Part shown: positions 6,591 through 40,956 of the stretch, piece by piece
How positions within the stretch are numbered: position 1 is the stretch's first letter
Layout: every line of letters begins with the position of its first letter
DNA from: Planctomycetota bacterium
GTDB lineage: Bacteria; Planctomycetota; B15-G4
Direction: 5' to 3'
NCBI GenBank assembly: GCA_038212275.1
Contig: JBBQUR010000004.1
Location: forward strand, 64,001-128,000
Length of the DNA: 64,000 bases
Position numbers and translations under genes: made by a program
The notes under the pieces: model-generated
Seen by the model: only the letters and a program-made list of their open reading frames with translations
Databases searched by the model: none
Told to the model about the DNA's origin: nothing

Positions 6591-6619
6591 GGGGCCGTCC
6601 GTGTCGCGGGTGGGGGCTG

Positions 6620-7222: not shown

Positions 7223-7240
7223 GGGCTGAGTTGCGAGGAC

Positions 7241-8380
7241 CTATTCGAAGAGGTCCTTGACCTTGTCGAGGAACGACTTTCGCTGAGGAGACGCATGGCC
7301 ATCATCGATGCTCATGAACTCGGTGAGCAGTTCCTTCTGGCGCGAGCTGAGCTTGCGGGGTGTCTCGAGCTGCACGCGCACGATGAGGTCGCCCTGCCCG
7401 TGACCGTAGACGGACGGCATGCCCATGTTGCGCAGGCGGAAGAGCTTTCCGCTCTGCGTGCCCGCCGGAATCTTGAGTTCGGCCGCGCCGGCAAGGGTGG
7501 GGACTTCGATGTCCGCGCCGAGCGTGGCCTGGCCGAAGGAGATCGGCATCTCGCAGAGCAGGTCGTCGCCCTCGCGCTGGAAGAGAGCGTGCGACGCGAC
7601 CTCGACCTCGACGAAGAGGTCGCCCCGGGGGCCGCCCTCGCTGCCTGGCTCGCCTTCGCCCTCGACGCGCAACTGCTGCCCGGTCTGGATGCCGCGCGGG
7701 ATGCGCACCTTGATGTCGCGTTCCTGGGGCTTCGTGCCCGAGCCGGAACAGCCCTTGCAAGGATCCTTGATGAGCTTTCCCTTGCCGCGGCACGCCGGGC
7801 AGGTCGTCTGCATCATGAAGAAGCCCTGGCTGCGCTGCACCTGGCCGTGACCGCCGCAGGTGCTGCAGCGCTCGGGCCTGGTGCCCTTCTTCGCGCCGCT
7901 CCCGCCGCAATCTCCGCAATGTTCGTTGCGGTGGATGCTGACCGTGCGCTCGATGCCGTCGAAGGCCTGCTTGAGCGTCAGCGAGAGGCTGATGCGCAGG
8001 TGGCTTCCCTGGCGTGGCCCGTTGCGCGACTGCTGCCCGCCGAACAACCCGCTGAGGATGTCGTTGAGGCCGCCGCCTCCGCCGCCGCGACCGCCGAAGA
8101 GACTCTCGAAGATGTCCCTGGGGTCGGCGCCGCTGGACTGGAAGCCACGGCCGCGCAGGCCGTCGTGACCGTACTGGTCGTAGGTCCGGCGCTTCTCCGC
8201 ATCGGAGAGCACCTCGTAGGCCTCGGCAGCCGCCTTGAAGTTCTCACCCGCGTCCGGATCGTCCTTGTTCCGGTCCGGGTGGTACTTCAGGGCCAGCTTG
8301 CGGTAGGCCTTCTTGAGCTCTTCGTCGGAGGCGGTGCGGTCAACGCCCAGAATCGCGTAATAGTCGCGGGTGGCGGCCAT
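7241..8380 (-). CDS. dnaJ: Chaperone DnaJ
   Basis: J-domain with HPD, G/F region, four CxxCxGxG repeats, C-terminal domain. Confidence 0.97.
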
Positions 8381-10505: not shown

Positions 10506-12197
<1,692 letters not shown>

Positions 12198-25187: not shown

Positions 25188-26549
25188 GTGATGTCACCTG
25201 CAGTGGACACGATCGTCGCGGCGATCACGCCTCCCGGCTTCGCGGAGCGCGCCGCGGTGCGCCTGTCGGGACCGGCCGCGTTCGACCTGGCTCGCACCGT
25301 GTTCGAGGTGCCCGCGGAGCTGAAGCCCGGGCGCGCCGCGCAGGCCATCTGGCGTCCGCTGCCGCTGCTCGCGCTGCCCGTGACGCTGCTGCCCTTCCGG
25401 GCGCCGCACTCCTACACGGGCGAGGACGTGATCGAGATTCACCTCAAGGGATGGCCGGTCGTGGTGGCCACGCTCATCACGCGCCTCGTGGCGGCCGGCG
25501 CGCGGCCGGCCGCCCGCGGCGAGTTCAGCCGGCGCGCGCTGGTGACGGGGCGCGTGACCGCCGCCCAGACGGTGGCCCTCGCGCGGCTCCTGGCCTCGCG
25601 CACCGCCGAGGAGGCGGCCGCCGCGGCGAGCGCGCTCACCGGGGCGCCCGCCGAGCGCCGCTCGCTCCTGCGCGACACCCTGCTCGACACGCTCGCGCGG
25701 CTCGAGGCGCACGTCGACTTCGAGGAGGATGACACCGAGGCCGTGAGCGAGACCGAGCTGCGCGCGGGCGTCGAGCGCGCCGTCGAGATCGCGCGCGAGG
25801 CCGTGGTCGTGGCCGGGCGCACGGCGCGCCTCGACGGCGAGTCCGACGTGGTGCTGCTTGGCGCGCCGAATGCCGGCAAGTCGCAGCTCTTCCTCGCGCT
25901 TTGTCCCGGTGCCAGCACGACCGTGTCGCCCGTCGCGGGCACGACGCGCGACGCGCTCGAGGCGCGCGTCGTGCGTGGCGGCCGTCACTGGCGCGTGCTG
26001 GACGGCCCGGGCGTCGACACCGGCGAGTTTCCGCTCACGCCGCTCGACCGCCGCGCGAGCGAGGCCTGGATCGCACAGCTGCCGACGCTCGCCGTGGTGC
26101 TGCTCGTGGAGGATGTCGCGGCCACGCCGCGAGCCGAGACACGTGCACGCCTCCTGGCGGCCGCGGGAGCCAGGCCGCTCGTGCCCGTGTTCTCCAAGTG
26201 CGACCTGATCGAAGCCGGGGAGGCCAGCCGCCGCGCGGAGTCCGCCGGGGCGTGCGCCGTCTCGGCGCAGGAGCACACGGGCCTGGACGGACTCTGGGCT
26301 GCGGTGGCGCGGGTGGCGCCTGCGCCCCTCGCTCCGGACCTCGCGGCCGAGCGCGAAGCGCGTGCAGCGGCCACGCTGCTCCCGCTGCTGGAGCAGACCC
26401 TGTCGGCGCCGCTGACCGGGGCGCTGCCCCTCGTCGCTCTGGCGCTGCGCGACGCGCTGGCCGAGCTCGACGACACCCTCGACGAGGGGCGCGACCTCAC
26501 GGAGGAAGTGCTCGATCGCATCTTCGCGAGCTTCTGCATCGGCAAGTAG
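25188..26549 (+). CDS. mnmE: tRNA modification GTPase MnmE (divergent)
   Basis: DTIVAAITP, PHSYTGEDVIE, GEFSRRA, GAPNAGKS, GTTRD, C-terminal FCIGK. Confidence 0.9.
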   Translation: MMSPAVDTIVAAITPPGFAERAAVRLSGPAAFDLARTVFEVPAELKPGRAAQAIWRPLPLLALPVTLLPFRAPHSYTGEDVIEIHLKGWPVVVATLITRLVAAGARPAARGEFSRRALVTGRVTAAQTVALARLLASRTAEEAAAAASALTGAPAERRSLLRDTLLDTLARLEAHVDFEEDDTEAVSETELRAGVERAVEIAREAVVVAGRTARLDGESDVVLLGAPNAGKSQLFLALCPGASTTVSPVAGTTRDALEARVVRGGRHWRVLDGPGVDTGEFPLTPLDRRASEAWIAQLPTLAVVLLVEDVAATPRAETRARLLAAAGARPLVPVFSKCDLIEAGEASRRAESAGACAVSAQEHTGLDGLWAAVARVAPAPLAPDLAAEREARAAATLLPLLEQTLSAPLTGALPLVALALRDALAELDDTLDEGRDLTEEVLDRIFASFCIGK

Positions 26550-26596
26550 CTGCACGCGCGAACTGCGTGACATGCAGGCTAGACTCTGCTGTGCCC

Positions 26597-28624
26597 ATGG
26601 AAGAGTCCGGCGAAAAGACCGAGCTGCCTGTCGTGCTGCGCGAGATCACGCGTGTCATCGCGGCCGGCGAGCGCATCGACACGCAGGAGTATCTGCAGCG
26701 CTATCCGGCCATCGCCCCGGAGCTCAAGCAGTTCTTCGCCACGCGCACTGCCGACGGCGGGCAGCCGCTGGGTCTCGTGCCGGGTGCGGTGCTGGACGAC
26801 TATCGCATCGTGCGCCCGATCGGCCGCGGCGGCATGGGAGTCGTGTACGAGGCGGAACAGCTCTCGCTGGGTCGCCGCGTCGCGCTGAAGGTCATGCCGC
26901 CGGGCGCCCTGCGCACGAAGATGGCCATGGACCGATTCCGGCGCGAGGCCATGGCCGTGGCGCGCCTCTCGCATCCGCGCATCGTCGCGGTGCACGGCTT
27001 CAATGAAGCGGGCGGGGTCGCCTACCTGGCGATGGAGCTCGTGGAAGGTCTCGATCTGGCGGAGATCATCGACCGCCTGCGCACGGCGCGCACGCACGGC
27101 CGGCGCTTCGTGCGCATCTCGGGACCCGGCCTCGATCAGGACATCACGGCGTGGGCGAAAGGCCGCAAACTCATCGGCACGCTGCCGGATGATCCGCGCA
27201 TCGAGGACGGCATCGTCATCGACCTGCGCAACTACGCGCCGATGGCGGCTGCCCTCGCGGCCGATGCCGCGGATGCGCTGCGGCACGCGCACGCGCACGG
27301 CGTCATCCACCGCGACATCAAGCCGAGCAACCTGCTGCTTGCCCGCGACGGCCATATCAAGCTGTCGGACTTCGGGCTGGCCAAGGGCGCCGGCGACGGC
27401 TTGGTCACCGCGACGGGAGACTTCGTCGGCTCGCCCGCCTACGTGAGCCCGGAACAGGCCCAGACGCGCCGCGCCAAGGTGGACGAGCGCAGCGACATCT
27501 ACAGCCTGGGCGTCACGCTGTACGAACTGCTCACGCTGCACCAGCCCTTCGCGGGCAAGGACGTCGCCGTGACGCTGCGGCAGATCCTGACCAAGGACCC
27601 GCCGCCTCCGAGCAAGCTCGACCCGCGCCTGCCGCGCGACATCGAGACCATCGTCATGAAGGCGATCGAGAAGGAACCCGCGCGGCGTTACCAGACCGCG
27701 GAGGAGTTCGGCGACGACCTGCGCCGCTTCCTCAATTTCGAGGCGATCGTCGCGCGGCCGCCGTCGGCGGTGTCCCGCGTGGTGCGCAGCATCCGGCGCC
27801 GGCGCGTCGGCATGGCGCTGGGCGCGATGGCGCTCGCGATCGTCGTGCTGACCGTGATGCTGGCGCAGGGCATCTGGCGTTCCGACCGGCGCGGCGAGAG
27901 CGTCGTGCGCGACCTGTCCGAGCAGCTTGCCCGCCGCGGCAGCGACCCGGTGGCGACAGGCGTGCTCGATCTCGTGCAGGAGCTGAGCCAGGACCTGCCG
28001 CGTGCCGAGCGGCGCCAGCGCATCGAGGCGCTCTCGTCCGATGCCAGCGCCCTGCTGCAGGCCGGCGACTACGAACGCGTGGACAGTCTGCTCGCGCAGC
28101 TCGACGCGAAAGCCGCGCTGGGGAACTGGGACGCTCTCGACCGCCAGCTGCTCGAGGCGAGCCAGCGGCAACTCAAGATCGAGCTCGTGCGGCGACTCGG
28201 CGAGGACCTGGCCGGCCCGCGCGATGTGCCGCTGGCCACGCGCCAGTGGCGCGGCTGGCTCAGCGTTCTGGAGCGCCGGCTGCAGGACCCCGACAGCCTG
28301 GTGTGCCTCAACGCCGCCGTCGCGCTCACCCGCATCGGCGCCTCGTCGTCGGCCGCCGCGCTCTATGACGCGCTCACGCGCCGCACGGACGTGGAGGGCC
28401 GCATCGCGATCATCGAGGCGCTCGGCCTGGTCGACAATCCGACCGCGATCCGACTGCTCGCCGAGGAGGCGCACGCGGACAGCGTCTGGGTGCGTGTCGC
28501 GGCGCTCGATGCCCTCGCCGCGCATCGGCTGCCGAACCTCGCGGAACTGGCCGGACATCTCAAGGACGATCCCGAGGCGTGGCTCGCGCACCGGGCTCAG
28601 GCGCTCATGCCGGTGCCGCCGTGA
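26597..28624 (+). CDS. Membrane Ser/Thr protein kinase with C-terminal HEAT-like repeats
   Basis: IGRGGMGVVY, VALK, HRDIKPSN, DFGLA, YVSPEQ, SDIYSLG; TM after RRRR; HEAT-like C-terminus. Confidence 0.92.
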   Translation: MEESGEKTELPVVLREITRVIAAGERIDTQEYLQRYPAIAPELKQFFATRTADGGQPLGLVPGAVLDDYRIVRPIGRGGMGVVYEAEQLSLGRRVALKVMPPGALRTKMAMDRFRREAMAVARLSHPRIVAVHGFNEAGGVAYLAMELVEGLDLAEIIDRLRTARTHGRRFVRISGPGLDQDITAWAKGRKLIGTLPDDPRIEDGIVIDLRNYAPMAAALAADAADALRHAHAHGVIHRDIKPSNLLLARDGHIKLSDFGLAKGAGDGLVTATGDFVGSPAYVSPEQAQTRRAKVDERSDIYSLGVTLYELLTLHQPFAGKDVAVTLRQILTKDPPPPSKLDPRLPRDIETIVMKAIEKEPARRYQTAEEFGDDLRRFLNFEAIVARPPSAVSRVVRSIRRRRVGMALGAMALAIVVLTVMLAQGIWRSDRRGESVVRDLSEQLARRGSDPVATGVLDLVQELSQDLPRAERRQRIEALSSDASALLQAGDYERVDSLLAQLDAKAALGNWDALDRQLLEASQRQLKIELVRRLGEDLAGPRDVPLATRQWRGWLSVLERRLQDPDSLVCLNAAVALTRIGASSSAAALYDALTRRTDVEGRIAIIEALGLVDNPTAIRLLAEEAHADSVWVRVAALDALAAHRLPNLAELAGHLKDDPEAWLAHRAQALMPVPP

Positions 28625-29748
28625 GGGCCTCGCTCCGCTTCCGCCTCTGGTGCGCGGCCCTGCCCGCGCTGATCGCCGCGTTCGCGCCGATGTCCGGCTG
28701 CAGCAAGCCGCCGCACTCCATCGGAGTCATCCTGCCACTGGAGGGCGCGCTCAAGCAGCAAGGTCACGAGCTGCAGGCGGGCATCGACATGGCGCTGTCG
28801 GAAGTGCCGCCCGAACGTCGGCCGCACGTGCTCGTCATGGACAACGGCGGCTCTCCGCAGGCCACCTCAGCGGCCGTGGATGCCCTGGTGCGGCAGGGCG
28901 CCACGGTGATCATAGGCCCGCTGACGACCGACAACGTCGCCGTGGCGACGCTGGCCGGACGCTTCCTCGGCGTGAGCTGCGTGGCCCCGGCGGCCACCGG
29001 CAGCCGGCTCATCGAGCCCGCCATGGGAACGCTGCGTCTCTGCTTCGGCGACGACGACGCGGGGGCCGCGCTGGCCCGCTATGCGCGCGACACGCTGCGC
29101 CTGGAACAGATGGCCGTCGTCATCGACCTCGCGTCGACGTACTCGGTGGGTCTGGCCACGGCGTTCAGTCAGGAATTCCTGCGGCGCGGCGGCAGCATCG
29201 CGGGGCGTTTCTATTTTCACGGCGGCGCCGCCGATGCCGATGTGGTGCTGGATTCGGTCGCCGCACTCGAGCCCGACGGCGTGCTGCTGGCGGCGTACTC
29301 GCCGGACGTGGTGCGCATGGTCAACGCGGCGCACGATCCGCGCGTGGCCGAGCTCATCCTCCTGGGTGGCGATGGCTGGAGCGGCTCCGGCGTGCGCGAG
29401 GCGCTCGAGGGCCGCGTGCGCGGCGCCTATCGCACGCGGCACTTCGATCCGGACAGCCACGACCCGCTCATCGAGGCCTTCGTCGCACGCTTCCGGGCGA
29501 CGGCCCACGAGGAGCCGACGGACCTGGTGGCACTCGGCTACGATGCGGCCCGCGCCGTGGTGGGCGTCTTCGATCCCGCGCTGGATGGCCCGGCCATGCG
29601 CACCCGGTTGCTCGGCCTCGCCGGCCAGCCAGGGGTCACCGGCGAGGTGACGCTTGATGGCCGCGGGGCGGCCAGCGACAAGCCCGTCCTGCTCGAAGTG
29701 CTGCACGATCCGAGGCAGCCCGGGGGCCTCGGGCGCATCGATCGCTGA
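28621..29748 (+). CDS. LivK/LivJ-like type I periplasmic binding-fold lipoprotein
   Basis: MSGC lipobox, IGVILPLEG, IIGPL, GGDGW, ALGYDAA. GTGA overlap with the kinase gene. Confidence 0.8.
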   Translation: MRASLRFRLWCAALPALIAAFAPMSGCSKPPHSIGVILPLEGALKQQGHELQAGIDMALSEVPPERRPHVLVMDNGGSPQATSAAVDALVRQGATVIIGPLTTDNVAVATLAGRFLGVSCVAPAATGSRLIEPAMGTLRLCFGDDDAGAALARYARDTLRLEQMAVVIDLASTYSVGLATAFSQEFLRRGGSIAGRFYFHGGAADADVVLDSVAALEPDGVLLAAYSPDVVRMVNAAHDPRVAELILLGGDGWSGSGVREALEGRVRGAYRTRHFDPDSHDPLIEAFVARFRATAHEEPTDLVALGYDAARAVVGVFDPALDGPAMRTRLLGLAGQPGVTGEVTLDGRGAASDKPVLLEVLHDPRQPGGLGRIDR

Positions 29749-29756
29749 AACAGTAC

Positions 29757-29802
29757 GGCCTGCATTTGGTGGCCGGCGGGTATGGAAACACCATCCCTTG
29801 TG
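29757..29802 (+). promoter_or_regulatory. Tandem NrdR-box-like sites
   Basis: GGCCTGCATTTGGTG (29757-29771) and ACACCATCCCTTGTG (29788-29802) versus consensus acaCwAtATaTwGtg; starts are 31 bp apart, directly upstream of nrdR. Confidence 0.6.
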
Positions 29803-29894
29803 GGATACTCCCCGAGCCGCGCAGGCAGCGCGCGGCGGTTCATCACAAGCCATGACCCGCGGCGGCGGGGGTGGCCCCAGGGAGGTTCAGCGCA

Positions 29895-30371
29895 TTGCGC
29901 TGTCCATACTGCAAGGCGAACAACGACCGGGTCATGGACTCACGCACCTCGGGCGAGGCAGACGTGATCCGGCGCCGCCGGGAGTGCCTGGAGTGCAAGG
30001 GCCGCTTCACGACCTACGAGAAAGTGGGCGAGATGCCGCTGCGCGTCGTGAAGAAGGACGGCACACGCGTGCCCTTCGACCGCGACAAGATCCTCCACGG
30101 CATGCTGGCCGCCTGCGAGAAGCGCCCGGTCTCCACCGAGACCCTCGAACGGATCGTGTCCAACATCGAGAGCCAGCTGCACGAGATGTTCGACAAGGAA
30201 GTGGCGAGCAAGTACATCGGCCACCTCGTCATGGAGGCCCTGCGCGAACTGGATCAGGTGGCGTACGTGCGCTTCGCCTCGGTCTACCGCGAGTTCAAGG
30301 ACGTCAACCAGTTCCTCGACGAACTCAAACCCCTGCTGGGAGGGGCGGGCCATGGTGCGCCGGAGTCCTGA
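29895..30371 (+). CDS. nrdR: Transcriptional repressor NrdR
   Basis: TTG start after GGAGG; (M)RCPYC...DSR...IRRRRECLECKGRFTTYE, ATP cone, DQVAYVRFASVY. Confidence 0.97.
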   Translation: MRCPYCKANNDRVMDSRTSGEADVIRRRRECLECKGRFTTYEKVGEMPLRVVKKDGTRVPFDRDKILHGMLAACEKRPVSTETLERIVSNIESQLHEMFDKEVASKYIGHLVMEALRELDQVAYVRFASVYREFKDVNQFLDELKPLLGGAGHGAPES

Positions 30372-32364
30372 CAACGAGGCGCGCCTCGTGGTGCGCAAGC
30401 GCGACGGGCGCCAGGTGCCCTTCGACCCCGAGCGCCTGCTGCAGTCGATGCAGCGCGCCCTCGCGGCGACGGGGCGCTTCGAGCCGTCGCTCGCTGCAGA
30501 CCTGCGAGGAGTCATCGAGACCTACCTCGCGGACCAGGCGCGCCAGAACCACGCAGGCCGCGTGGGGCTCGTGACAGCGGACGCGATTGCCGAGCTGGCG
30601 CAGGAGGTGCTGCGCGGCGCGGGCTGTGAACCCGCGGCGCAGGTCTATCGCGCCGCGCGCGACGAACGAGCGCGGGCCCGCGGCCTGCTGCGCATTCGCG
30701 CGACGGCGGCGCACGATCCCGTCCGGGCCATTCCGCCGGGTCTGCTCGGCGGTCCGTCCGGCGCTGGCGACGCGAGCGATGAAGATGCCGACACCGGCGG
30801 CGTGGTCGCGCCCGCTCGCGAGTTTCGCGGCGGCGGCGATGTCCGCTGCGAAGATTCCGAGGCCTGGAGCAAGGGCCGCGTCGCCGCGCTGCTGGCCCAG
30901 GCGACGGACCTCGCGCCCGGCGTCGTGGACGCCGTCGCCGCCGAGGTCGAGCGCGGGCTCTTCGCGTCCGGCCTGCGCAGCATCGGCGCAGCCCTGCTGC
31001 GCGAATGGGTCGACAACGAACTCGTGCTGCGCGGGCATCCGCCGCGGCTCGGCAAGCACCGCTTCGTCGGGCTCGCGCCGCACGAACTGCGCGGCATCCT
31101 TGCCGACGGCGCGGCTGTCCGATCCGCCGAGACCGAGGTCAGCCGCCGGCTGTTCACGCGCTATGCGCTGGCCGAGGTCTTTCCGTCCGATGCGTGCCGG
31201 GCGCACGAGCAGGGGCTCATCGGGCTGGAGAACCTCGGCTCCTGCGGGCGCCTCGACAGCGTCACGCTGGCGCCGTGGCACGCGCCGGCTTTCGCGGGCG
31301 TGGCCGATCCGCGCGAACGCCTTGCCGCCCTCGGGCCGCAGCTGCGCACGCTGGCCAACCTGCTCTCGCGCGAGGTCCTGCTCGACTGGGATGGCCCGGC
31401 GCTGGGGAGCCTGGCGCTCTCCGATCTGCTGCTGCACCTTGCGGAGGTGGCGCCGGTGCATGCCGGGGGCGCGCGCATCGTGTTCTGCATCCGGCCCGAA
31501 CACGCCGGGAGCGCGGAGGCCTTCCTGGATGCACTGTCCATCCTGCGGCGCGGGACGTTGCCGCGGCCGGCGTTGCTGCCGTGCGTGCGCCTTCCGGTGG
31601 CCGCACTGTCCGCCGACCTGCTGGCGCAGGCTGTCGCCGCCGAGGCCGTCGATGATCGGCTGCAGTTCGCCGCGACCGCGCCGCCGCACGGTGTCGTGAG
31701 CGCCTCGGTGGCCGTCAATGTGGCGCGCCTCGCGCTGGGCTGTGGCCCGCGACGCGTCCACGAGTTCCTGGCAGGCCTCGAGGCCGCCACGGACCTGGCG
31801 CTCGGCGCGCTGGCCGCCCAGGACGCGCTCATGGGGGACGGCGATGCGCCGGCCCAGCTCCTGCTTCGTGCGACGGGCCTGTCGGCCGCGCAACTGCCCC
31901 GTCGGCGCCGACTCGCGTTGGCCGGCGTGAACGAGGCGGCGCAACTCCTGCTGGGAGACGGGCCTCGCGGCCGGGCCAATCGCATCGACCTGGCCGCGGC
32001 CATCGGTGAGCGCCTGCGCCGAAGGCTCACCGACCGTGAGCCGCTCGTGCGACTCGGCCGGGCCACGCGCGCCAGCTGCGACCGCTTCGGCAGACTCGAT
32101 CTGCAGGCGTTTCCGGGCGGTCGCGAGCTGCTGAAGCTGACCGCCGACCGCGACGGATATCGCTACGACGCGGCTCAGGGGCTGGCGCCGGGCGCCGATG
32201 GCGCCGAAGCTGGGCGCGAAGCCGGCCGCTTCTGGCAGTGCCTCGGCCTTGACACCGAGGTGTTCGTGCCGCGCTGCACGGGCGGCACCAACCAGCGTCT
32301 CGCCTACCTGCCTGCCTTCCACTCGGTCACGAACCCCGTCCCGGACCTGAATCCATGCGGTTGA
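30352..32364 (+). CDS. Two-ATP-cone protein homologous to class III ribonucleotide reductase NrdD, apparently lacking catalytic elements
   Basis: VRKRDGRQVPFD cone; second cone WSKGRV...LLREWVDNEL; RYALAEVF...AHEQGLIGLENLG; VAVNVARLA; LAGVNEA; RFGRLD. No C-terminal CxxC/CxxC or RxxGY. Confidence 0.75.
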   Translation: MVRRSPDNEARLVVRKRDGRQVPFDPERLLQSMQRALAATGRFEPSLAADLRGVIETYLADQARQNHAGRVGLVTADAIAELAQEVLRGAGCEPAAQVYRAARDERARARGLLRIRATAAHDPVRAIPPGLLGGPSGAGDASDEDADTGGVVAPAREFRGGGDVRCEDSEAWSKGRVAALLAQATDLAPGVVDAVAAEVERGLFASGLRSIGAALLREWVDNELVLRGHPPRLGKHRFVGLAPHELRGILADGAAVRSAETEVSRRLFTRYALAEVFPSDACRAHEQGLIGLENLGSCGRLDSVTLAPWHAPAFAGVADPRERLAALGPQLRTLANLLSREVLLDWDGPALGSLALSDLLLHLAEVAPVHAGGARIVFCIRPEHAGSAEAFLDALSILRRGTLPRPALLPCVRLPVAALSADLLAQAVAAEAVDDRLQFAATAPPHGVVSASVAVNVARLALGCGPRRVHEFLAGLEAATDLALGALAAQDALMGDGDAPAQLLLRATGLSAAQLPRRRRLALAGVNEAAQLLLGDGPRGRANRIDLAAAIGERLRRRLTDREPLVRLGRATRASCDRFGRLDLQAFPGGRELLKLTADRDGYRYDAAQGLAPGADGAEAGREAGRFWQCLGLDTEVFVPRCTGGTNQRLAYLPAFHSVTNPVPDLNPCG

Positions 32365-35300
32365 CCAGCGTCGAAATCCACGGCTTCAAGTCCTTCGCCG
32401 ACATGACCAAGCTGCACCTGCCGGCGGGGCTCACAGCCGTGGTCGGGCCGAATGGCTGCGGCAAGTCGAACGTCATCGACGCCATCAAGTGGGCTCTCGG
32501 CGAGCAGAAGGCCTCCGCGCTGCGCGGTGACGAGATGCTCGACGTCATCTTCAAGGGCAACGGCGCACGGCCCGCACGCAACTACGCCGAGGTCTCGCTC
32601 GTCTTCGACAACGAGGACCACACGCTGCCGGTCGAGTTCAACGAGGTCACGGTGACGCGTCGCCTGTTCCGTTCGGGCGAGAGCGAGTACCTCATCAATC
32701 GCCAGCCGCAGCGCCTGAAGGATGTGCGCAACCTGTTCATGGACACGGGCCTCGGCATGGGCGCCTACTCGATCATGGAGCAGGGACGCATCGACGCGAT
32801 CCTCTCCGCCGACGCGCAGGACCGCCGGCGCATCTTCGAGGAAGCGGCCGGCGTCTCGCGCTACCGGTCCCGGCGCCGCGAGACGGAGGCGCGCCTCGAA
32901 CGCACCGAGCAGAATCTGCTGCGCCTGGGCGATGTCATCGAAGAGCTCGAGAAGCAGGTGCGCTCGCTCAAGAACCAGGCGGGGAGGGCGCGCAGCTATC
33001 TTGCCGCGCGCGATCGCCTGCGCGGGCTGAAGGCGCGCTTCTATAGCCACCGCTGGGAGGAGCTCGGCGCACGCGTGACCGAACTCACGGAAGCCGCGGC
33101 GGCCGGCGAGCGCCAGGAAGCGGAGGCGCGCGAGCTGCTCGACACCTGCCGCGCGGAACACGGCGCGCTGCAGGAGGCGCTCGCGCTGGCACGGACCGAG
33201 GTCGATGCTGCGGCCGAACTCTTCCGGCAGTCCACGAGCGCGGCGGAGACCGTCGCCACACGGCGTGCCGCGGTGCAGGATCGCCTCGCGGAATCCGAGG
33301 CGCGCAGCGGGCAGTTGCAGGACCGCCTGGCGGGCCTGCAGGCTGCGCTCGACGAGCGGCGGCGCGAGGCAGAGGCGATGGCGGGGCGCCTGGACGAGCT
33401 GCGCGCGGAACGCAGCGCCAGCGAGACCGGCCTGGGCGAGCGTGAAACGGCTGGCCTCAAGGCGGAGGTCGCGCTCGTCGACTGGCGCGGCGCGGACGAT
33501 CAGCGCCGCCGGACGGCGCTCGAGCGGCAGTCGGAACTCACGCGCGAGGGCAATCGTCGCGCGGACAGCAGCGCGCGTCACGCCGCCAGCGCATCCAGCC
33601 ATGCGCGCGTGGGCGAGCGGGCCGCGGAGCTGCGCCGCCAGGTGCAGGCGCTCTCCGACCTGCGTGGCGAGCTCACCGCCGGCGTGCAGAGCCTCGAGAG
33701 CGCGCTGCTCGAGGCGCGCGAGCGACTGACGGCTGCGCGCGAGGGACGCCAGGCCGCGATGGCCGGCATCGCGTCACTCGACGCGTCGCTGCTCGGCCTG
33801 CGCGAACGTTTCACGGCCGCCGACTCGCGCCGACAGACGCTGGCCGAGCTGATCGCGCGCCGCGAAGGCGTGTCGCGCGGCGCCGTGGCGCTGCTGGAGT
33901 CCGGCCTGCCGGGCATCGAAGGCCTGGTGGTGGACCGCCTGCGCGCCCCGCGCAAGCTGTCCGAGGCCGTCGAGGCCGCGCTCGGCGCGAGTGCGGAGGC
34001 CGTGCTCGTCGCCTCCCGTGCCGATGCTCTCGGCGCGTTGCAATTCCTGGGCGAGCAGGGCGCCGGCCGCGTGCTGCTGCTGCCGCGCGACGGGCTGCGG
34101 GCGCGCGAGGGCGCGAGCGACGGCGAGCGACTGCTGGACCGCCTCAAGGTGCTCGGAGAGCACGAGGCGCTGGAAGCGCTGCTCGGTCACGTGAGGCTCG
34201 TGCCCGATCGTGAAGCGCTCGCGCACTGCCAGGCCGACGGCGCCACGGTATGGGTCACGCTGCAGGGCGAGATCCTCGATGAGCGCGGCCTGTTGCGCGG
34301 CGGCCGGTCGGGTGGCGAGGGCGGCCTCGTGACGCGCCAGGCCGAGTGCGACGCGCTGGCAGCCGAGACGGCCGAACTGCGCGATCAACTCGCCGCCTTG
34401 CAGCAGACGCGGCTCGGCCACGAGCAGGCGCTGGCAGAAGCGCAGGAGCATCTGCTGCAGTGCGAGGCGGCGGCGCGGGTCGTCGAGGCCGAGCGGCAGC
34501 AGACGGCGGAACGCAGCCGGCAGGTCGGCATGCAGGCGCAGACCCTGGAGCGCGACCTCGCCGTCACCGAGAAGGACGTCGCGGCGATGGAGCGCACGCT
34601 GGCCGAAGAAGCCGCCGTGCGCGATGCGGCCGCGGCGCGCGAGCAGGAGCTGCTTGCGCTGGTGGAAACCGACCGGCAACTCGCCACGGCCGCGGAGGCC
34701 CGGCGCGAGGCGCTCGAGCAGTCGCTCAGCGAGGCCCGTGCGGCCGCGGCCGAGGCGCGCCTGCAGTATTCGACGCTGCGCGAGCGGCAGCAGGCGCTGG
34801 AGGGCGAGGCCCGGCAGGTTGCACGCGCTGCCGAGGAGCGGGCGGGCGAGCTGGCCACGACGCAGGCGGAGATCACGTCGCTGGGCGCGACAGGACTGGC
34901 GCTGCGGCAGGAGGCGTCGGAGCTCGAGGCACGCGAACTGGCCCTGTGCGAGGAGCGCGATGCCGCGGCCGGCGCCCTGGTGGAGCGACGGCGCACGGCC
35001 AGCGACGTGAGCGAGCGGCTGCTCGCGGCGCAACGCCTCGTCGGTACGGCGGAGACCGGCCTGTCGGTGGCCGGCGAAGCGGTCTCGAAGCAGCGGCTGC
35101 GGCAGCAGGAAGCCACGATCCACCGCGAGACCTTGCGCGAGAAGGTGCGCGAGGAACTCGAGGTGGACCTCGCAACGCACACCCTCGCCTTGCTCCCGCT
35201 TCCGGGCGAAGAGCCCGAGGAGGGCGAGGCTCCTGCCGACGGCGCGGACGTCACCGCGTCGGCGTCGGCGTCGGCCTCCGCCGATCCGGAGCTTTCGGAC

Positions 35301-36083
35301 TGGGAGTCGATCGAGGCGGAGATCGAGCGCCTGCGGGAACGCATGTCGCGCATGGGCAATGTGAACCTCGCGGCGCTGGACGAGCTGGCCGAGGTCGAGC
35401 AGCGCCTCAGCTTCCTCGTGGGCCAGCGCGACGACCTGCTCGCCGCGCGCGGCACGCTCATGGACACGATCTCGATGGTGAACCGCGAATCGCGCGAGCG
35501 CTTCGTCGAGACCTTCGAGCTGATCCGCGAGCACTTCCGGCACATCTTCCGCAAACTGTTCCACGGCGGCCGCGCCGACGTCTTTCTCGTCGAGGGCGTG
35601 GACGTCCTCGAGGCGGGCATCGAGATCGTGGCCGCGCCGCCGGGCAAGGACCCGCGCTCGATCAGCCTGCTGTCGGGCGGCGAGCGCACGCTCACGGCAG
35701 TGGGCCTGCTGTTCGCCTTGTTCCGTGCGAAGCCGAGTCCCGTCTGCATGCTCGACGAGGTGGATGCGGCCCTCGACGAGACGAACATCGACCGCTTCTG
35801 CACGGTGCTCGAGGACTTCCTCGGCGGCAGCCAGTTCCTCGTGGTGACGCACGCGCGCCGCACGATGAGTTACGCCGACACGCTCTACGGCATCACGATG
35901 CAGGAGCACGGCGTGAGCAAGGCGCTCTCGCTGACGCTGCGCGAGTACGATCAGAAGCAGGCGACGGCGCACGGTCCGGCGGACGCCGAGGCCGCGCCGG
36001 TCGACGCGGCGCCGGCGGCGTCGGTGCCGCGAGCGCGCGTCGCCTCGGCGCTGGATTCCACGGAAGCCGCGGCAGGCCACTGA
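32355..36083 (+). CDS. smc: Chromosome segregation protein SMC
   Basis: GFKSF, GPNGCGKSN, EQG Q-loop, coiled coils and hinge, LSGGE, MLDEVDAALD. Confidence 0.97.
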   Translation: MRLTSVEIHGFKSFADMTKLHLPAGLTAVVGPNGCGKSNVIDAIKWALGEQKASALRGDEMLDVIFKGNGARPARNYAEVSLVFDNEDHTLPVEFNEVTVTRRLFRSGESEYLINRQPQRLKDVRNLFMDTGLGMGAYSIMEQGRIDAILSADAQDRRRIFEEAAGVSRYRSRRRETEARLERTEQNLLRLGDVIEELEKQVRSLKNQAGRARSYLAARDRLRGLKARFYSHRWEELGARVTELTEAAAAGERQEAEARELLDTCRAEHGALQEALALARTEVDAAAELFRQSTSAAETVATRRAAVQDRLAESEARSGQLQDRLAGLQAALDERRREAEAMAGRLDELRAERSASETGLGERETAGLKAEVALVDWRGADDQRRRTALERQSELTREGNRRADSSARHAASASSHARVGERAAELRRQVQALSDLRGELTAGVQSLESALLEARERLTAAREGRQAAMAGIASLDASLLGLRERFTAADSRRQTLAELIARREGVSRGAVALLESGLPGIEGLVVDRLRAPRKLSEAVEAALGASAEAVLVASRADALGALQFLGEQGAGRVLLLPRDGLRAREGASDGERLLDRLKVLGEHEALEALLGHVRLVPDREALAHCQADGATVWVTLQGEILDERGLLRGGRSGGEGGLVTRQAECDALAAETAELRDQLAALQQTRLGHEQALAEAQEHLLQCEAAARVVEAERQQTAERSRQVGMQAQTLERDLAVTEKDVAAMERTLAEEAAVRDAAAAREQELLALVETDRQLATAAEARREALEQSLSEARAAAAEARLQYSTLRERQQALEGEARQVARAAEERAGELATTQAEITSLGATGLALRQEASELEARELALCEERDAAAGALVERRRTASDVSERLLAAQRLVGTAETGLSVAGEAVSKQRLRQQEATIHRETLREKVREELEVDLATHTLALLPLPGEEPEEGEAPADGADVTASASASASADPELSDWESIEAEIERLRERMSRMGNVNLAALDELAEVEQRLSFLVGQRDDLLAARGTLMDTISMVNRESRERFVETFELIREHFRHIFRKLFHGGRADVFLVEGVDVLEAGIEIVAAPPGKDPRSISLLSGGERTLTAVGLLFALFRAKPSPVCMLDEVDAALDETNIDRFCTVLEDFLGGSQFLVVTHARRTMSYADTLYGITMQEHGVSKALSLTLREYDQKQATAHGPADAEAAPVDAAPAASVPRARVASALDSTEAAAGH

Positions 36084-36113
36084 GCGCGGCCCGTGGCGCG
36101 CGCGTCGGTCCCT

Positions 36114-36375
36114 CGTCTCTCGAGACGCTGCGCCATCGCGACACCGATGCGCACAGCCCTCGCGAAGCGGGCGTGCCGTGCATCGGTCACGGGCCGACGA
36201 GGATCCCCGGATCCTCGTCGCAAGGGCGGACCAAGCGGAAACTCTAGGGAAAAGGGGAAGAAGGGGAGAAGAGTTTTAAGCCTGATGAGGGCAACCGCAT
36301 GGCCCGCAACACTGGTCGCTAGGATATCAGCAGACTTTGCGAGAGCAAACGCGCAGCCCGGAAATCCGGCGGTCC
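36114..36375 (+). ncRNA. Candidate structured RNA containing a hammerhead-like core
   Basis: Series of hairpins, a purine tract, and CTGATGA-GGGC...GCCC-GCAAC-ACTG-GTC at 36282-36317. Confidence 0.45.
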
Positions 36376-36424
36376 GGCAACATGCTGCACTGCGGCGCGT
36401 CCTTCCCGTGATACCGAGTGGACC

Positions 36425-37405
36425 ATGAGCCGTGCGCGCAGCATGTTCCGGTATCGGTGCGAGGATGTGCTGCTGGCGGCAACGATGGCGTGCGTATGCC
36501 GCTTGCCTGCCGCGCTGGTCCTTGCGGGCACGCGCTGCCTGGCCAGACTGGCTGCCATCGTGCTTCCGGGACGGCGGCGACATGCCCGCGAGCTCGTGCT
36601 GCAACGGCTGGGACCCGGCTGCAACGGCCGACGCGCGGACCAGATTGTCGCGGGGGCCTTCCGCACGCTCGGCTTGAACACCGTGGAGCCGATGCTGGTG
36701 GAGCGGGCGTTGCGCCGAGGTGTGCCGGATGCCGAAATCGTCACGGTGGAAGGCGCCGAACATCTGCAGGCAGCGCTTGATGCCGGTCACGGCGTGTTCA
36801 TCTGCGGCGCCCACTTCGGGGCGTGGGAACTCGGTCCGCTGCTGGTCGGCCGCCTGTTCGCGCCGATGTGGGTGGTCGCCCGGCGCCTCGACAATCCCTT
36901 CCTGGAGAGCCGCCTGCTGGCGCATCGTCAGCAGTTCACCCGAGGCAGCGTGCCGAAGGACGGCGGGGCCGCGCAGCTCGTGCGGATCCTGCGCGCCGGG
37001 GAGGCCGTCGGAATCCTCCTCGATCAGAACGCGGGACGCGGCGGCGTGATCATGGACTTCCTTGGCGCGCCCTCGAGCCACCACAGGGTGGTCGGGGTGA
37101 TGGCCCGACGCTTCGGGGCTGCGGCCCTGCCCTCCTACCTGTTGCGCGAGCCGGGGACGCTCCGCTTCCGGCTCATCTTCGAGGCGCCGATCACCGCCCG
37201 GCCCGACCTGCCGCCCGAGGAGGCCGAGCGCGACGTCGTCGCGCGGATCTCGGCCTCGCTCGCGGCCCGCGTCCGCGCCCACCCGGAACAGTACCTCTGG
37301 CTGCATGACCGATGGCGTCACGCCGTGCGGGCCGAGCGGCTCGCGCGCGCCGCGGCAGCGGGTGATTCCCGTGCGCCGGTCGCGCAGGTTACAAACGATG
37401 CCTGA
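36425..37405 (+). CDS. Lipid A late acyltransferase (LpxL/HtrB family)
   Basis: HFGAWE, RRLDNP, LLDQ, HPEQYLWLHDRWR. Confidence 0.9.
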   Translation: MSRARSMFRYRCEDVLLAATMACVCRLPAALVLAGTRCLARLAAIVLPGRRRHARELVLQRLGPGCNGRRADQIVAGAFRTLGLNTVEPMLVERALRRGVPDAEIVTVEGAEHLQAALDAGHGVFICGAHFGAWELGPLLVGRLFAPMWVVARRLDNPFLESRLLAHRQQFTRGSVPKDGGAAQLVRILRAGEAVGILLDQNAGRGGVIMDFLGAPSSHHRVVGVMARRFGAAALPSYLLREPGTLRFRLIFEAPITARPDLPPEEAERDVVARISASLAARVRAHPEQYLWLHDRWRHAVRAERLARAAAAGDSRAPVAQVTNDA

Positions 37406-38408
37406 TTCCTTCCGCTCGCCGGGTGCCATGGACTTCAAGCCGCTGGACTTCTCGCGCGTCGTGACTTCCTCGGTGAGCAACCGCAGCCACCGCGTGAGCA
37501 CGGCGCTGTTCGCACGCGCCGTGGAGGTGCCCGCCGGGGGCCCCGACGTTCTCGACAGCCTGCCCGACGTGCTCGGCGCGCGGGCCCTGCGAAGGCTGGC
37601 GGAACGCATCGTCGACGCGCGCGTGCAGGGTCGCGTGGTGTTGTTCGGCTTTGGCGGCCACGTGATCAAGACCGGCCTGTCGCCGCTGCTGATCGACCTC
37701 ATGGAGCGCGGCTTCATCCAGGCTCTGGCGACGAACGGCTCGGGCGCGATCCACGACTACGAGATCGCCGCCGTGGGGCACAGCTCCGAGGACGTGGGGC
37801 CAGGCCTCGAGAACGGCAGCTGGGGGATGGTGTCGGAGACGGCGGCTGCGCTCAATGAGGCGGCGCACCGCGCCGTCCGGGAAGACATCGGCCTCGGCGC
37901 CGCGCTCGGTCGCACGATCGCGGAGCAGAAGCTGCCCAATGCTTCGATGTCCGTGCTCGGCTCGGCTGCGCGACTCGGCATTCCGGTCACGGTGCACGTG
38001 GCACTCGGCACGGACACGGTGCACATGCACGGCAATGCGGACGGCGCCGCCATCGGGCAGGCGTCGATGGCGGACTTCCGCCTGCTGGCCTCCATCGTCG
38101 CGCGGCTGTCGCACGGCGTCTACGTGAACATGGGCTCGGCCGTCGTGCTGCCGGAGGTGTTCGTCAAGGCGCTCAACGTGGCGCGCAATCTTGGAGAGAC
38201 CGTGGAAGGCTTCGCGACGGCGAACATGGACATGCTGCGCCACTACCGACCGCGCGTGAACGTGCTGGAGCGGCCGGGAGGCGAGGCGCTGGAGATCACC
38301 GGTCATCACGAGCTGAACCTGCCGCTGCTGCGCTGGGCCGTGCTGCGCCTCGCCGCGCAGACCGGCGGCGCTGCGCCCGGCGCGAGCCCTGCGCGAGGTG
38401 CGCCATGA
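37398..38408 (+). CDS. Conserved protein with deoxyhypusine-synthase-like features
   Basis: GGHVIKTGL, ATNGSGAIHDYEIA, HVALGTD, GSAVVLPEVF, GHHELNLPLL. Confidence 0.7.
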   Translation: MPDSFRSPGAMDFKPLDFSRVVTSSVSNRSHRVSTALFARAVEVPAGGPDVLDSLPDVLGARALRRLAERIVDARVQGRVVLFGFGGHVIKTGLSPLLIDLMERGFIQALATNGSGAIHDYEIAAVGHSSEDVGPGLENGSWGMVSETAAALNEAAHRAVREDIGLGAALGRTIAEQKLPNASMSVLGSAARLGIPVTVHVALGTDTVHMHGNADGAAIGQASMADFRLLASIVARLSHGVYVNMGSAVVLPEVFVKALNVARNLGETVEGFATANMDMLRHYRPRVNVLERPGGEALEITGHHELNLPLLRWAVLRLAAQTGGAAPGASPARGAP

Positions 38409-39877
38409 GTCCCGGTCTCTCCGGACTGCTGCACCCGGCCCGCCCGCCGCGCATCCTGCTCGTGGGGGACATGATCCTCGACCGCTACCAGTATGGTTCG
38501 ACGGAGCGCGTGTCGCCCGAGGCGCCGATCGTGGTGCTGGCGGCCACGCGCGAGGAGCACCTGCTGGGAGGTTGCGGCAACGTCGCCTCGAATCTCGCCG
38601 CGCTCGGCGCGGAGGTGCGCTGCGTGTCGGTGGTGGGGCGCGACGAAGCCGCCGCACGCGTGCGCGAGCTGCTCGGAACGCACGGCATCGATGCCGGCGA
38701 CCTCGTCACGGACGCCAGCCGTCCGACGATCCGCAAGACCCGCGTGGTGAGCCAGAGCCAGCAACTGCTGCGTATCGACGAAGAACAGGTGCGTCCGCTG
38801 GATGCGGCCATCGAGGCCACGCTGCTCGAGCGCATCGAGGCGCAGATGCAGGGCGTGGACATCGTGGTCGTGTCGGACTACGGCAAGGGCGTGCTCACGG
38901 AGAGAGTGCTCGAGCGGCTCTGCCGCGCAAAGAGCGGGCCGCGCGTGCTGGTCGACCCGAAGGGCCGCAGCTACGAGCGCTATCGCGGCGCGCACATCAT
39001 CACGCCGAACAAGCTGGAAGCGGAGACCGCCACGGGCATCTCCCTCGACGAGCCGGACGGCATCCGGCGGGCCGCGCTGGAGCTGTGCCGCATCGCGAAG
39101 CTGCATGCGGCCGTCATCACGCTCGGCGCGAAGGGCATGTACTGCTGCCTCGCGGACGGCAGCCAGGAGTGGAGCATCCCCGCCGTGGCGCGTTCGGTCT
39201 ACGACGTGACGGGCGCCGGCGACACCGTGCTGGCCGTGATGGCGTTCACGCTCGCCGCCGGTGCAGGCATCGACGATGCCATGCGCCTTGCCACGCTGGC
39301 GGCGGGCATCGTCGTGCAGAAGGTGGGAGTCGTCGCCGTGACGCCCGTGGAGATCGAGCGGGCGCTGCATGACACCGTGTCGAGCGGCAGCAAGCTGCTC
39401 TCGCGCGGCGACCTCGCGGAGCGGGTCCTGCTCGAGCGGCGCGCGGGTCGTCGCGTCGTCTTCACCAACGGATGCTTCGACGTGCTGCACGTCGGGCACC
39501 TGCAGTACCTGCAGGAGGCACGGGCGCTCGGCGACGTGCTCGTCGTCGCGGTGAACGCCGACGACAGCGTGCGGCGCCTCAAGGGCGAGGGGCGCCCCGT
39601 GAACGGCCAGCAGGATCGTGCGGCGCTGCTCGCGGGCCTCGAGTGCGTGTCGCTCGTGACCGTGTTCGAGGAGGACACGCCGCTCGAGCTCATCCGCACC
39701 CTGAGCCCCGACGTGCTCGTGAAGGGCGCCGACTGGAAGGACAAGGGCGTCGTCGGCGCGGACTGGGTGGAGAGTCATGGCGGCAAGGTGGTGCTTGCCG
39801 CGGTGAAGGCCGGCTACTCGTCGACGGCGACGCTCGCGCGCATCGCCGCCGACGCCACGCCGAAGCAGGCCCGCTGA
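38405..39877 (+). CDS. hldE: Bifunctional heptose 7-phosphate kinase / heptose 1-phosphate adenylyltransferase
   Basis: GDMILDRY, RVSPEAP, SDYGKG, DVTGAGDT; FTNGCFDVLHVGH, KGADW, SST. Confidence 0.95.
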   Translation: MSPGLSGLLHPARPPRILLVGDMILDRYQYGSTERVSPEAPIVVLAATREEHLLGGCGNVASNLAALGAEVRCVSVVGRDEAAARVRELLGTHGIDAGDLVTDASRPTIRKTRVVSQSQQLLRIDEEQVRPLDAAIEATLLERIEAQMQGVDIVVVSDYGKGVLTERVLERLCRAKSGPRVLVDPKGRSYERYRGAHIITPNKLEAETATGISLDEPDGIRRAALELCRIAKLHAAVITLGAKGMYCCLADGSQEWSIPAVARSVYDVTGAGDTVLAVMAFTLAAGAGIDDAMRLATLAAGIVVQKVGVVAVTPVEIERALHDTVSSGSKLLSRGDLAERVLLERRAGRRVVFTNGCFDVLHVGHLQYLQEARALGDVLVVAVNADDSVRRLKGEGRPVNGQQDRAALLAGLECVSLVTVFEEDTPLELIRTLSPDVLVKGADWKDKGVVGADWVESHGGKVVLAAVKAGYSSTATLARIAADATPKQAR

Positions 39878-39879
39878 GC

Positions 39880-40956
39880 ATGGGTCTGCCGGGGGCGGAC
39901 GCGTCGTCGCCACGGCAGATCCTCGTGCGCCTGCCCAATCCCATCGGCGACTCCGTGATGAGCACGCCGGCGCTGCTCGCGCTGCGGGCGCACTGGCCGC
40001 AGGCGCGCATCACGGCCGTCGGCCCCGGCAGTGCGACGGCGCTGCTGGAGGGACTGCCCTGCCTGGACGAGCTGCGTCCGCTGGCCTCGCGCCGCTCGAA
40101 GGGCGGCGCCGCCGCGCTGGCCGCGGAGGCCCGCACGCTGCGCTCCACGCGCTTCGACCTCGCGCTGATCATGGCCAACTCCTTCAGCTCGGCCTGGATG
40201 ATCTGGCGCACAGGCGCCTCGCGCCGCGTCGGCTACGGCGGCGGCGGCCGGCAGCTGTTGCTCACGGACGTCGTGCCCTCGGCGCCGGAGCCGCCCTTCC
40301 ACCGCATGCCGCAGCCGATGGTCGAGTTCTACTTCCGGCTGGTGGAGCACGTGGGCGTGCCGCGCGGCGATCACCGCACGCGACTCGTCGCCACCGCGGC
40401 CGATGAAGAGCGTGCGCAGGCCTGGCTCGAGCGACACGGCCTGGCCGACGGGGCGCCGCTCTACGGCATGCACGGCGGTGCGTCCTTCGGGCCAAGCAAG
40501 CTGTGGTATCCGGAGCGCTGGGCTGCTGTGGCCGATGCCCTGCACACGCGGCACGGGGGCCGCACGATTCTGTTCTGCGGCCCAGGCGAGGAGCGCGACG
40601 TGCGCGCGATCGCAGCGGCCGCAAAGAGTCCTGTCGCCAGTGCCGCGGAGGATCCCATCGACTTGCGCACGCTGAAGGCGATCATGTCGAAGCTGTCGCT
40701 GCTCATCGCGACGGACGCCGGGCCGCGCCACGTCGGCGTGGCCTTCGATGTGCCATGCGTCGCGCTGCTGGGTCCCACGGACCCGCGCTTCTCGAACACC
40801 AACCTGCAGCACAGCGTGCTCGTTCGCACCGGCGTCGCCTGCAGCCCCTGCCACAAGAAGATCTGTCCGCTGCCCGAGCCCGCGCATCACTGCTGCATGC
40901 GGGAGATCTCGCCGGAGCACGTGCTCGCGGCCGCCGAGCGCCTGCTCCAGAGCTGA
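39880..40956 (+). CDS. waaF: LPS heptosyltransferase II (GT9)
   Basis: RLPNPIGDSVMSTP, FGPSKLW, DAGPRH, LLGPTDP, CSPC; follows hldE. Confidence 0.88.
   Translation: MGLPGADASSPRQILVRLPNPIGDSVMSTPALLALRAHWPQARITAVGPGSATALLEGLPCLDELRPLASRRSKGGAAALAAEARTLRSTRFDLALIMANSFSSAWMIWRTGASRRVGYGGGGRQLLLTDVVPSAPEPPFHRMPQPMVEFYFRLVEHVGVPRGDHRTRLVATAADEERAQAWLERHGLADGAPLYGMHGGASFGPSKLWYPERWAAVADALHTRHGGRTILFCGPGEERDVRAIAAAAKSPVASAAEDPIDLRTLKAIMSKLSLLIATDAGPRHVGVAFDVPCVALLGPTDPRFSNTNLQHSVLVRTGVACSPCHKKICPLPEPAHHCCMREISPEHVLAAAERLLQS

Follow-up and report, generated by a model that had tools for sequence, protein, structure and literature searches.

Between nrdR and smc of a Planctomycetota bacterium lies a gene whose product of 670 amino acids (aa) is, judged by sequence and position, a descendant of a class III ribonucleotide reductase (RNR), NrdD, of the type that carries two ATP-cones. 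The gene is located in a window of 64,000 nucleotides (nt), by which we mean the whole stretch of DNA analysed (assembly GCA_038212275.1, contig JBBQUR010000004.1, positions 64,001 to 128,000, forward strand); coordinates given without a contig are positions of this window. The protein, to which we refer as dead NrdD, lacks the parts required for ribonucleotide reduction, and it is very probably a non-catalytic protein that is maintained by selection. Its most likely role would be that of an ATP/dATP sensor acting with NrdR, and not that of an enzyme. The three genes are co-oriented on the plus strand and overlap by 20 nt (nrdR and the 670-aa open reading frame, ORF) and by 10 nt (the ORF and smc), which agrees with the coordinates in an initial annotation of the window that was made from the sequence alone. 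The features of the locus are as follows.

29895..30371, plus strand: nrdR, 158 aa from a TTG at 29895, in a frame that is open from a GTG at 29871 (TIGR00244, 2.7e-62; PF22811; PF03477)
30352..32364, plus strand: dead nrdD, 670 aa (label P0002), starting within the last 20 nt of nrdR (profile comparisons)
30388..30672, plus strand: ATP-cone 1 of dead NrdD, residues 13-107, with KRDGR at 16-20 (Pfam PF03477, 1.6e-8)
30847..31137, plus strand: second, degenerate cone-derived segment, residues 166-262, with WSKGR at 172-176 (alignment to cone 2 of live NrdD)
31138..32196, plus strand: diverged NrdD core, residues 263-615, without the beta-A Cys, HxHD, NxN flap and finger loop (hhalign against live NrdD cores)
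32197..32364, plus strand: clade-specific C-terminal tail of dead NrdD, the last codons of which are shared with the start of smc
32355..36083, plus strand: smc, 1242 aa (TIGR02168, 2e-275; SMC_N and hinge domains)

Descent from NrdD and loss of the catalytic parts

The descent of the 670-aa protein is based mainly on profile-profile comparisons. Alignment A1, which consists of 23 relatives of the protein (mean column identity 55%, with dozens of invariant residues), matched a set of 28 aligned live NrdDs, taken from genomes of planctomycetes, at 100% in hhalign (E 1.1e-52), and the core alone, from which both cones had been removed, matched the 28 live cores at 95.0% (E 3.6e-8) over 347 columns. 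In this reference set the beta-A Y-C, the finger-loop C-C-R-L, T.N, G.NE, E..PAE, R.A..D, YTNS, the Zn-ribbon cysteines and R..GY are invariant. The blocks that the initial annotation had pointed out in its comparison with NrdD were all found (YALAEVF at 271-277, AH..G.I.L..LG at 284-296, RLDSV at 300-304, VAVNVARLA at 453-461, GVNE at 525-528 and RFGRLD at 578-583), and the named blocks pair with the corresponding NrdD blocks in the profile-profile alignments.

The relatives used for A1 come from a word-indexed search that returned 26 proteins at E <= 2.9e-68 (38-81% identity, 369-676 aa) besides 12 more distant ones; where named, the annotation reads "ATP cone domain-containing protein", with Planctomycetota as the source. 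When 1.84 billion representatives were searched with a profile, 224 proteins had E <= 1e-30 and 2908 had E <= 1e-3. In the ESM Atlas the neighbours of the protein are three clusters of planctomycete proteins with 133, 66 and 91 members, in which the NRDD family is present in only 41-61%. Direct comparison of dead NrdD with the sequences of the PDB by phmmer gave no match, and no Pfam or NCBIfam model recognises the core of the window protein itself, Pfam seeing the ATP-cone at residues 13-107 only. The A1 profile matches the cones of the solved NrdDs 9D3X (2.9e-7) and 8P23 (1.2e-5), and it matches the core of 9D3X over a weak, 7.5-bit stretch that pairs the V.VN and RF..LD blocks. Sub-threshold matches to Pfam NRDD are present in 10 of 13 distant relatives; among 64 further relatives, hand-chosen from the results of the profile search, the NRDD cut-off was reached by 27, only three of which match as far as the model's C-terminus.

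Of class III enzymes, 92.6% conserve the beta-A Cys, and their finger-loop motif reads MGCR or MCCR (PMC9669993); the HxHD motif binds the triphosphate of the substrate (PMC11226230). It had been proposed from the sequence that the protein reads RLDSV where NrdD has a Cys motif, that the finger-loop segment is deleted, and that neither a Zn ribbon nor an RxxGY loop is present at the end, and the alignments bear this out. The beta-A column falls on Leu306 in hhalign and a few residues away in MAFFT, and no conserved Cys is present there either way; the core of the dead family contains no conserved Cys at all. The CCRL finger loop lies opposite a gap of ~23 residues, HxHD reads G-L-E-N, and in the profile alignments the NxN flap is absent and the EsPAE and YTNS blocks are gone. 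Dead NrdD terminates where the Zn ribbon of NrdD begins, with no match to that ribbon or to the glycyl-radical domain, which agrees with a regular-expression search in which 150 of the 156 full-length relatives (at least 550 aa) had no glycyl motif, [GC]CR finger loop or ribbon. Because the beta-A Cys, the finger loop, HxHD, the NxN flap, the Zn ribbon and the glycyl loop have all been lost, the protein cannot reduce ribonucleotides.

The window genome (4.65 Mb, 91% complete) contains no match to PF13597 even at E 10, no Gly_radical domain and no NrdB. The best scores in this genome for the activases NrdG (TIGR02491) and NrdG2 (TIGR02495) are 18.1 and 46.5 bits, against cut-offs of 126.1 and 131.15. 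As the initial annotation had remarked, no nrdG is adjacent to the gene, and nowhere in the genome does one pass a cut-off. The sole reductase found is one cone-less NrdJ (TIGR02504, 3.9e-171), and ATP-cones are present in NrdR and dead NrdD only.

Selection, ancestral cluster and stages of decay

Substitution rates indicate that the gene is under purifying selection, as expected for the retained, non-catalytic protein that the initial annotation had envisaged. The ratio of nonsynonymous to synonymous substitution (dN/dS; Nei-Gojobori) was calculated against L094, the closest relative with DNA (73% identical), and was 0.30 for the whole dead nrdD (bootstrap 0.24-0.37), 0.05 for nrdR and 0.22 for smc. 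By region, it was 0.29 for cone 1, 0.21 for the cone 2 segment, which is the best-conserved part of the protein, 0.27 for the core (0.20-0.36) and 0.75 for the linker between the cones. Eight within-genus pairs of the same order gave 0.12-0.25 for dead nrdD; the frames of these pairs were taken from stop to stop, which inflated the nrdR values and made one smc value an artefact. For a set of 45 dead proteins, pairwise identity averages 0.42 per cone and 0.20-0.27 in core and tail, compared with 0.67-0.70 in the cones and 0.67-0.84 in the core of 19 live two-cone NrdDs, the rows of both sets having been hand-chosen. As far as these alignments tell, constraint has shifted from the barrel to the cones, and we infer that selection now acts mainly on the cones, with a barrel that is still not free to drift. 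A pseudogene was considered and rejected: the frame is intact here and in relatives, dN/dS is 0.12-0.30 in all nine pairs, and 35 of 42 genomes in the window's order have the gene.

The genes at the two ends of the locus are unambiguous. NrdR scores 209.2 bits with TIGR00244 (cut-off 124.65) and contains the Zn ribbon PF22811 and the ATP-cone PF03477, and SMC scores 916.8 bits with TIGR02168 (cut-off 567.35) and contains SMC_N and SMC_hinge. The ORF between them was described as intact, and it is uninterrupted, with a GC content at third codon positions (GC3) of 0.863 that is of the coding type. Dead nrdD is translationally coupled to nrdR upstream and to smc downstream. The unit is bounded by a gap of 146 nt before nrdR and by ~340 nt after smc, and we regard the three genes as one unit because the neighbours on both sides are unrelated. 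The upstream flank (25901-29748) encodes a Ser/Thr kinase with HEAT repeats and an overlapping gene of the periplasmic-binding type; the downstream flank (36425-40956) contains genes for the lipopolysaccharide core, namely a lipid A acyltransferase, an HldE-like kinase/adenylyltransferase and a heptosyltransferase. Two other candidates at the locus were rejected. An antisense ORF (30325-32322, minus strand, 665 aa) was set aside as an artefact of the high GC content of the DNA (72%), homology and codon-position GC both favouring the plus frame, and the conserved extreme C-terminus of dead NrdD is not taken as a functional motif, its codons being shared with the start of smc.

The place of dead nrdD is that of a working reductase gene in other planctomycetes. 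At the loci found in genomes with A1, nrdR is directly upstream in seven of seven, and smc is directly downstream in all six in which the contig continues. Twenty chosen loci with a weak partial PF13597 match, from other planctomycete families, comprise 12 flanked by nrdR and smc on the same strand, three with one of the two and five with neither, in four of which the protein was detected alone. Among the 30 best PF13597 loci of the phylum, nrdR is directly upstream in 23 (all 23 encode proteins of ~800 aa with two cones), and in four of these loci the start of smc is reached, ~1.2 kb downstream, by the flank of 1.5 kb. The gap between nrdD and smc in the two loci inspected (L032 and L035) holds an activase of the NrdG2 type (181 bits, cut-off 131), and the reductase in those loci passes TIGR02487 (416 bits, cut-off 326). 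The ancestral cluster is, on these arrangements, nrdR-nrdD-nrdG-smc, from which nrdG has since been removed in the lineage of the window. In the dead lineages nrdR overlaps the dead gene, whereas the live clusters have a short gap. At its other end, the dead gene stops -4 to +11 nt from where smc begins, as seen in 17 loci of the order; the heuristic failed on the remaining ones.

The dead family is, by its profile matches, phylum-wide and extends beyond a small clade. The profile of a sister dead family, A2, matched 145 of the 201 planctomycete genomes that made up the phylum sample. Live enzymes match this profile over the cones only (positions 2-283); matches that continue beyond position 305, into the dead-type core, come from ~60 genomes among the matches listed (hand count). 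PF13597 was matched in 94 of the 201 genomes, in 49 of them at E <= 1e-90, which corresponds to the live type (hand count). In the window's order, a cone protein lies within a few hundred bases of nrdR in ~39 of the 40 genomes with an ATP-cone match, as read from the listed rows. Some members of these families have unusual forms. Two genomes of 9.3-9.5 Mb from one family (L050 and L055) encode dead-type relatives in frames of 604 aa, with neither nrdR nor smc nearby, and these seem to be without the first cone, their matches starting at residues 162-172 of dead NrdD. Two live two-cone NrdDs (P0088 and P0130) are interrupted by inteins with Intein_splicing and LAGLIDADG or homing-endonuclease domains. 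Three loci of one genus in the window's family (L072, L073 and L074) have NrdR frames of 248-278 aa, compared with ~155-180 aa elsewhere, which represent either a C-terminal extension or a late stop running into the next gene.

Trees of 45 dead and 28 live proteins, hand-chosen, were built with FastTree and with IQ-TREE (LG+C20+F+G4). The dead proteins form one group that is sister to 23 nrdR-linked live NrdDs. A single origin of the dead group is allowed by these trees and not proven, and long-branch attraction is a real risk because most rows deviate from the model in their composition. P0118, which branches at the base of the dead group, is a protein of 794 aa that aligns along its whole length with a live NrdD at 38% identity. 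The Zn ribbon and the glycyl motif are still present in it, but the beta-A Cys, the CCRL loop and the Asp of HxHD are gone, and it is possibly an intermediate stage in the death of the enzyme. The other end of the process is represented by G105, a genome of the window's family in which 57 nt separate nrdR from the smc gene behind it and a contig of 1.44 Mb shows no trace of dead nrdD.

G105:C1:932000-941500, 3636-8087, minus strand: nrdR-smc locus of G105 (L095)

These loci form a natural series, from live NrdD with NrdG, through a Cys-less intermediate with a glycyl loop and proteins with no catalytic part, to the absence of the gene in G105, and this series lets one ask which function outlives catalysis.

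Such a series could also be read as the slow decay of a relic, the frame of which is kept open by translational coupling to smc and by an operon that is hard to break. Consistent with this view, the position of the gene is inherited from live nrdD, the dead proteins evolve much faster than live NrdDs, the motifs have been lost stepwise (HxHD is kept in 8-20 of the 45 dead proteins, and P0118 still has the Gly loop), the gene has been cleanly deleted in G105, and the conserved C-terminal residues are explained by the codons shared with the smc start. However, an open frame alone would not constrain amino acids. The dN/dS values are far below 1, also in the core, and similar to that of smc, dozens of residues are invariant, and the gene is intact and beside nrdR in nearly all genomes of the order that have it. 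We therefore consider the relic quite unlikely.

The same degree of doubt applies to a factor directed at SMC, in which dead NrdD would sense ATP/dATP and act on the loading or the ATPase of SMC, tying chromosome organisation to the supply of deoxyribonucleoside triphosphates (dNTPs). The initial annotation had favoured a link of this kind. It is supported by the 10-nt overlap of stop and start with smc, which is conserved in the order, by an smc gene that lacks the space for its own promoter and therefore appears to be transcribed from that of nrdR, and by ScpA and ScpB, which are encoded elsewhere. The link is weakened by the finding that smc already follows nrdD-nrdG in lineages in which NrdD works, and that in G105 it follows nrdR without the protein. 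Adjacency to smc is thus inherited from live nrdD and provides no specific argument for a role directed at SMC. No fused forms were present among the longer homologues searched, which is weak evidence in the same direction.

The ATP-cones and a possible partnership with NrdR

Two ATP-cone-like segments had been claimed for dead NrdD. The first is recognised by Pfam (35.4 bits, cut-off 25.8) and matches the cone of NrdR in hhalign (93.7%, E 1.9e-7); the second (residues 166-262) has no Pfam match on its own and can be called cone-derived only through its alignment to cone 2 of live NrdDs. The homologous segment of the live NrdD at L032 matches the Pfam ATP-cone (30.7 bits, 4.6e-7, model positions 11-78); in L044, a dead relative further away, the corresponding segment stays below the threshold. 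By this comparison the second segment is a degenerate second cone, which was degenerate already in the live enzymes. In the NrdD of Prevotella copri the nucleotide phosphates are surrounded by K7, R8, D9, R11, R87 and R91 (PMC11226230). These residues correspond to K16, R17, D18, R20, R106 and R110 of dead NrdD and are kept in 42-44 of the 45 dead relatives, and G19 is likewise conserved. Because cone 1 keeps the phosphate-holding residues of the solved NrdD cones, it probably still binds ATP and/or dATP.

NrdR sites consist of two 16-bp boxes that are 15-16 bp apart, in which C4, A6, A8, T9, T11 and G13 are conserved (PMC13584703), and NrdR often controls its own gene (PMC9110341). Candidate boxes were scored by counting these conserved positions, six per box and 12 per tandem. 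A candidate tandem with 9 of the 12 positions is located upstream of nrdR, at -138 from its start (p 0.03 against 200 shuffles).

29757..29772, no strand assigned: candidate NrdR box 1, 5 of 6 conserved positions
29788..29803, no strand assigned: candidate NrdR box 2, 4 of 6 positions, after a 15-bp linker from box 1 and abutting a -10-like hexamer at 29804-29809

In relatives, the best upstream tandem reaches at least 9 of 12 in 23 of 41 distinct upstream regions, with p <= 0.05 in 19 of the 41. Upstream of nrdJ, outside the window (G000, contig C18, ~10870-10920), a tandem site has 11 of the 12 positions and a spacing of 32 bp, and none of 500 shuffles reaches that score. A strict sigma-70 scan of 29600-36500 gave no promoter, and terminator-like sites in that region are at chance level. 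A look through public sequencing runs listed none with RNA from the locus. The site upstream of nrdR is a candidate; if it is real, dead nrdD and smc belong to the NrdR regulon. An smc gene within an apparently NrdR-controlled operon in this order would link dNTP supply to chromosome organisation, with or without the involvement of the dead protein.

In the mechanism that we favour, dead NrdD would keep nucleotide binding at cone 1 (ATP and/or dATP) and would associate with NrdR through the cones, which is the weakest step, and this association would tune the NrdR-dependent repression of nrdJ and of its own operon, including smc. NrdR is placed first as the partner because the genome encodes no cone protein besides these two, because cones self-associate, this being how they act in NrdR and in reductases (PMC11226230, PMC9110341), and because the two genes became overlapping in the dead lineages; we nevertheless regard the partnership as tentative and open to considerable doubt. 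An enzyme that has long outlived its catalysis must have had a second function to fall back on. In its most complete form, the proposal holds that dead NrdD is an ATP/dATP-sensing co-repressor or anti-repressor of NrdR that keeps a regulatory function of the live two-cone NrdDs and places nrdJ, which encodes the B12-dependent reductase, and smc under the control of the dNTP pool, and in this form we consider it unlikely. If true, planctomycete NrdR would be a two-protein sensor, and chromosome condensation would be wired to the supply of DNA precursors.

Several observations weigh against a sensor acting with NrdR. Adjacency to nrdR is ancestral, as is adjacency to smc, so that it is by itself no proof of a partnership. 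Cone 2 of the window protein goes unrecognised by Pfam and does not match the NrdR cone (3.3%). In cone 1, the aromatic residue that stacks on the second nucleotide (Y83 in P. copri NrdD) is Ala102, and it is Tyr in only 22 of the 45 dead relatives; moreover, cone 1 scores 28-47 bits in the window's clade, compared with 62-77 bits in the sister families. The branches of the dead family are 3-10 times longer than those of live NrdDs, indicating faster evolution. The bare box pattern is not above chance over the window (8 matches, 5.4 expected), and the match upstream of nrdR is modest. Finally, G105 represents a clean natural deletion, which means that the dead gene is dispensable at least there.

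A different partner would be NrdJ, for which dead NrdD could be a switch acting in trans that supplies the ATP/dATP on/off site that this cone-less class II enzyme lacks. This view may be supported by the genome content described above, with NrdJ as the only reductase found and cones in NrdR and dead NrdD alone, a situation shared by most of the order's 42 genomes; a cone on a long frame of reductase size occurs in just two of them. It should be noted, however, that cones occur in under 10% of class II enzymes anyway (PMC11226230), so that the pattern is not specific, that nrdJ is located on another contig, and that G105 has lost dead NrdD without gaining a cone elsewhere, its one cone match being in NrdR. 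We regard this switch as very unlikely. That the protein is still an enzyme, with another chemistry or with a glycyl-radical piece and an activase provided in trans, is barely credible: the Asn of V.VN and the G.NE and RF..LD blocks are kept, and the genomes of some planctomycetes with live NrdD contain small ORFs whose match to the NRDD model is confined to its last 30 positions, but the core has no conserved Cys, HxHD and the finger loop are gone, and a split enzyme is unlikely because the genome has no PF13597 or Gly_radical piece and neither NrdG nor NrdG2 above cut-off. The small frames (125-142 aa; for example, G132:C1:1680308-1680406, G112:C48:376-456 and G087:C93:53233-53319) are from one family, in genomes that also have a live NrdD; the ~30 NRDD positions that they match are those of the glycyl-radical loop, and they may be stand-alone glycyl-radical "spare part" proteins.

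Comparison with known systems

In the literature searched, which did not cover subscription journals, we found no description of a dead NrdD or of a cone-bearing RNR pseudoenzyme. What is new here is the phylum-wide spread of the family, the live nrdR-nrdD-nrdG-smc ancestor at the level of the locus, the intermediate P0118 and the natural deletion in G105. Databases name these proteins ATP-cone proteins or, in part, anaerobic reductases, and metabolic reconstructions could therefore wrongly credit their hosts with anaerobic dNTP synthesis.

The closest known relative is the live two-cone NrdD of planctomycetes, such as that at L032:853-3306 (TIGR02487, 416 bits). It occupies the same place in the cluster and has two N-terminal cone segments, with W-x-K in cone 2, and a homologous core with the AH..G, V.VN, G.NE and R[FL]..D blocks. 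In contrast to this enzyme, dead NrdD is without the beta-A Cys, CCRL, HxHD, the NxN flap, EsPAE, YTNS, the Zn ribbon and the R[IV]VGY loop, has no nrdG partner and has evolved several times faster. With the solved NrdDs of P. copri, 8P23 and 9D3X (PMC11226230, PMC12662201), it shares an alignable cone 1 in which K-R-D-G-R and two arginines of the C-terminal helix are conserved; however, the parts by means of which the cone controls those enzymes, the NxN flap and the glycyl-radical domain, do not exist in the window protein. NrdR, encoded by the adjacent, overlapping gene and the sole further protein of the genome with an ATP-cone, senses nucleotides and works through oligomerisation that its cone drives (PMC9110341). 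Unlike NrdR, dead NrdD, whose net charge is close to neutral, shows neither a Zn ribbon nor any other domain recognisable as DNA-binding. According to PMC11226230, ATP-cones occur essentially only in ribonucleotide reductases and NrdR. A large, phylum-wide family with a dead reductase and with cones that selection maintains would represent a third use of the cone, that of an enzyme turned sensor.

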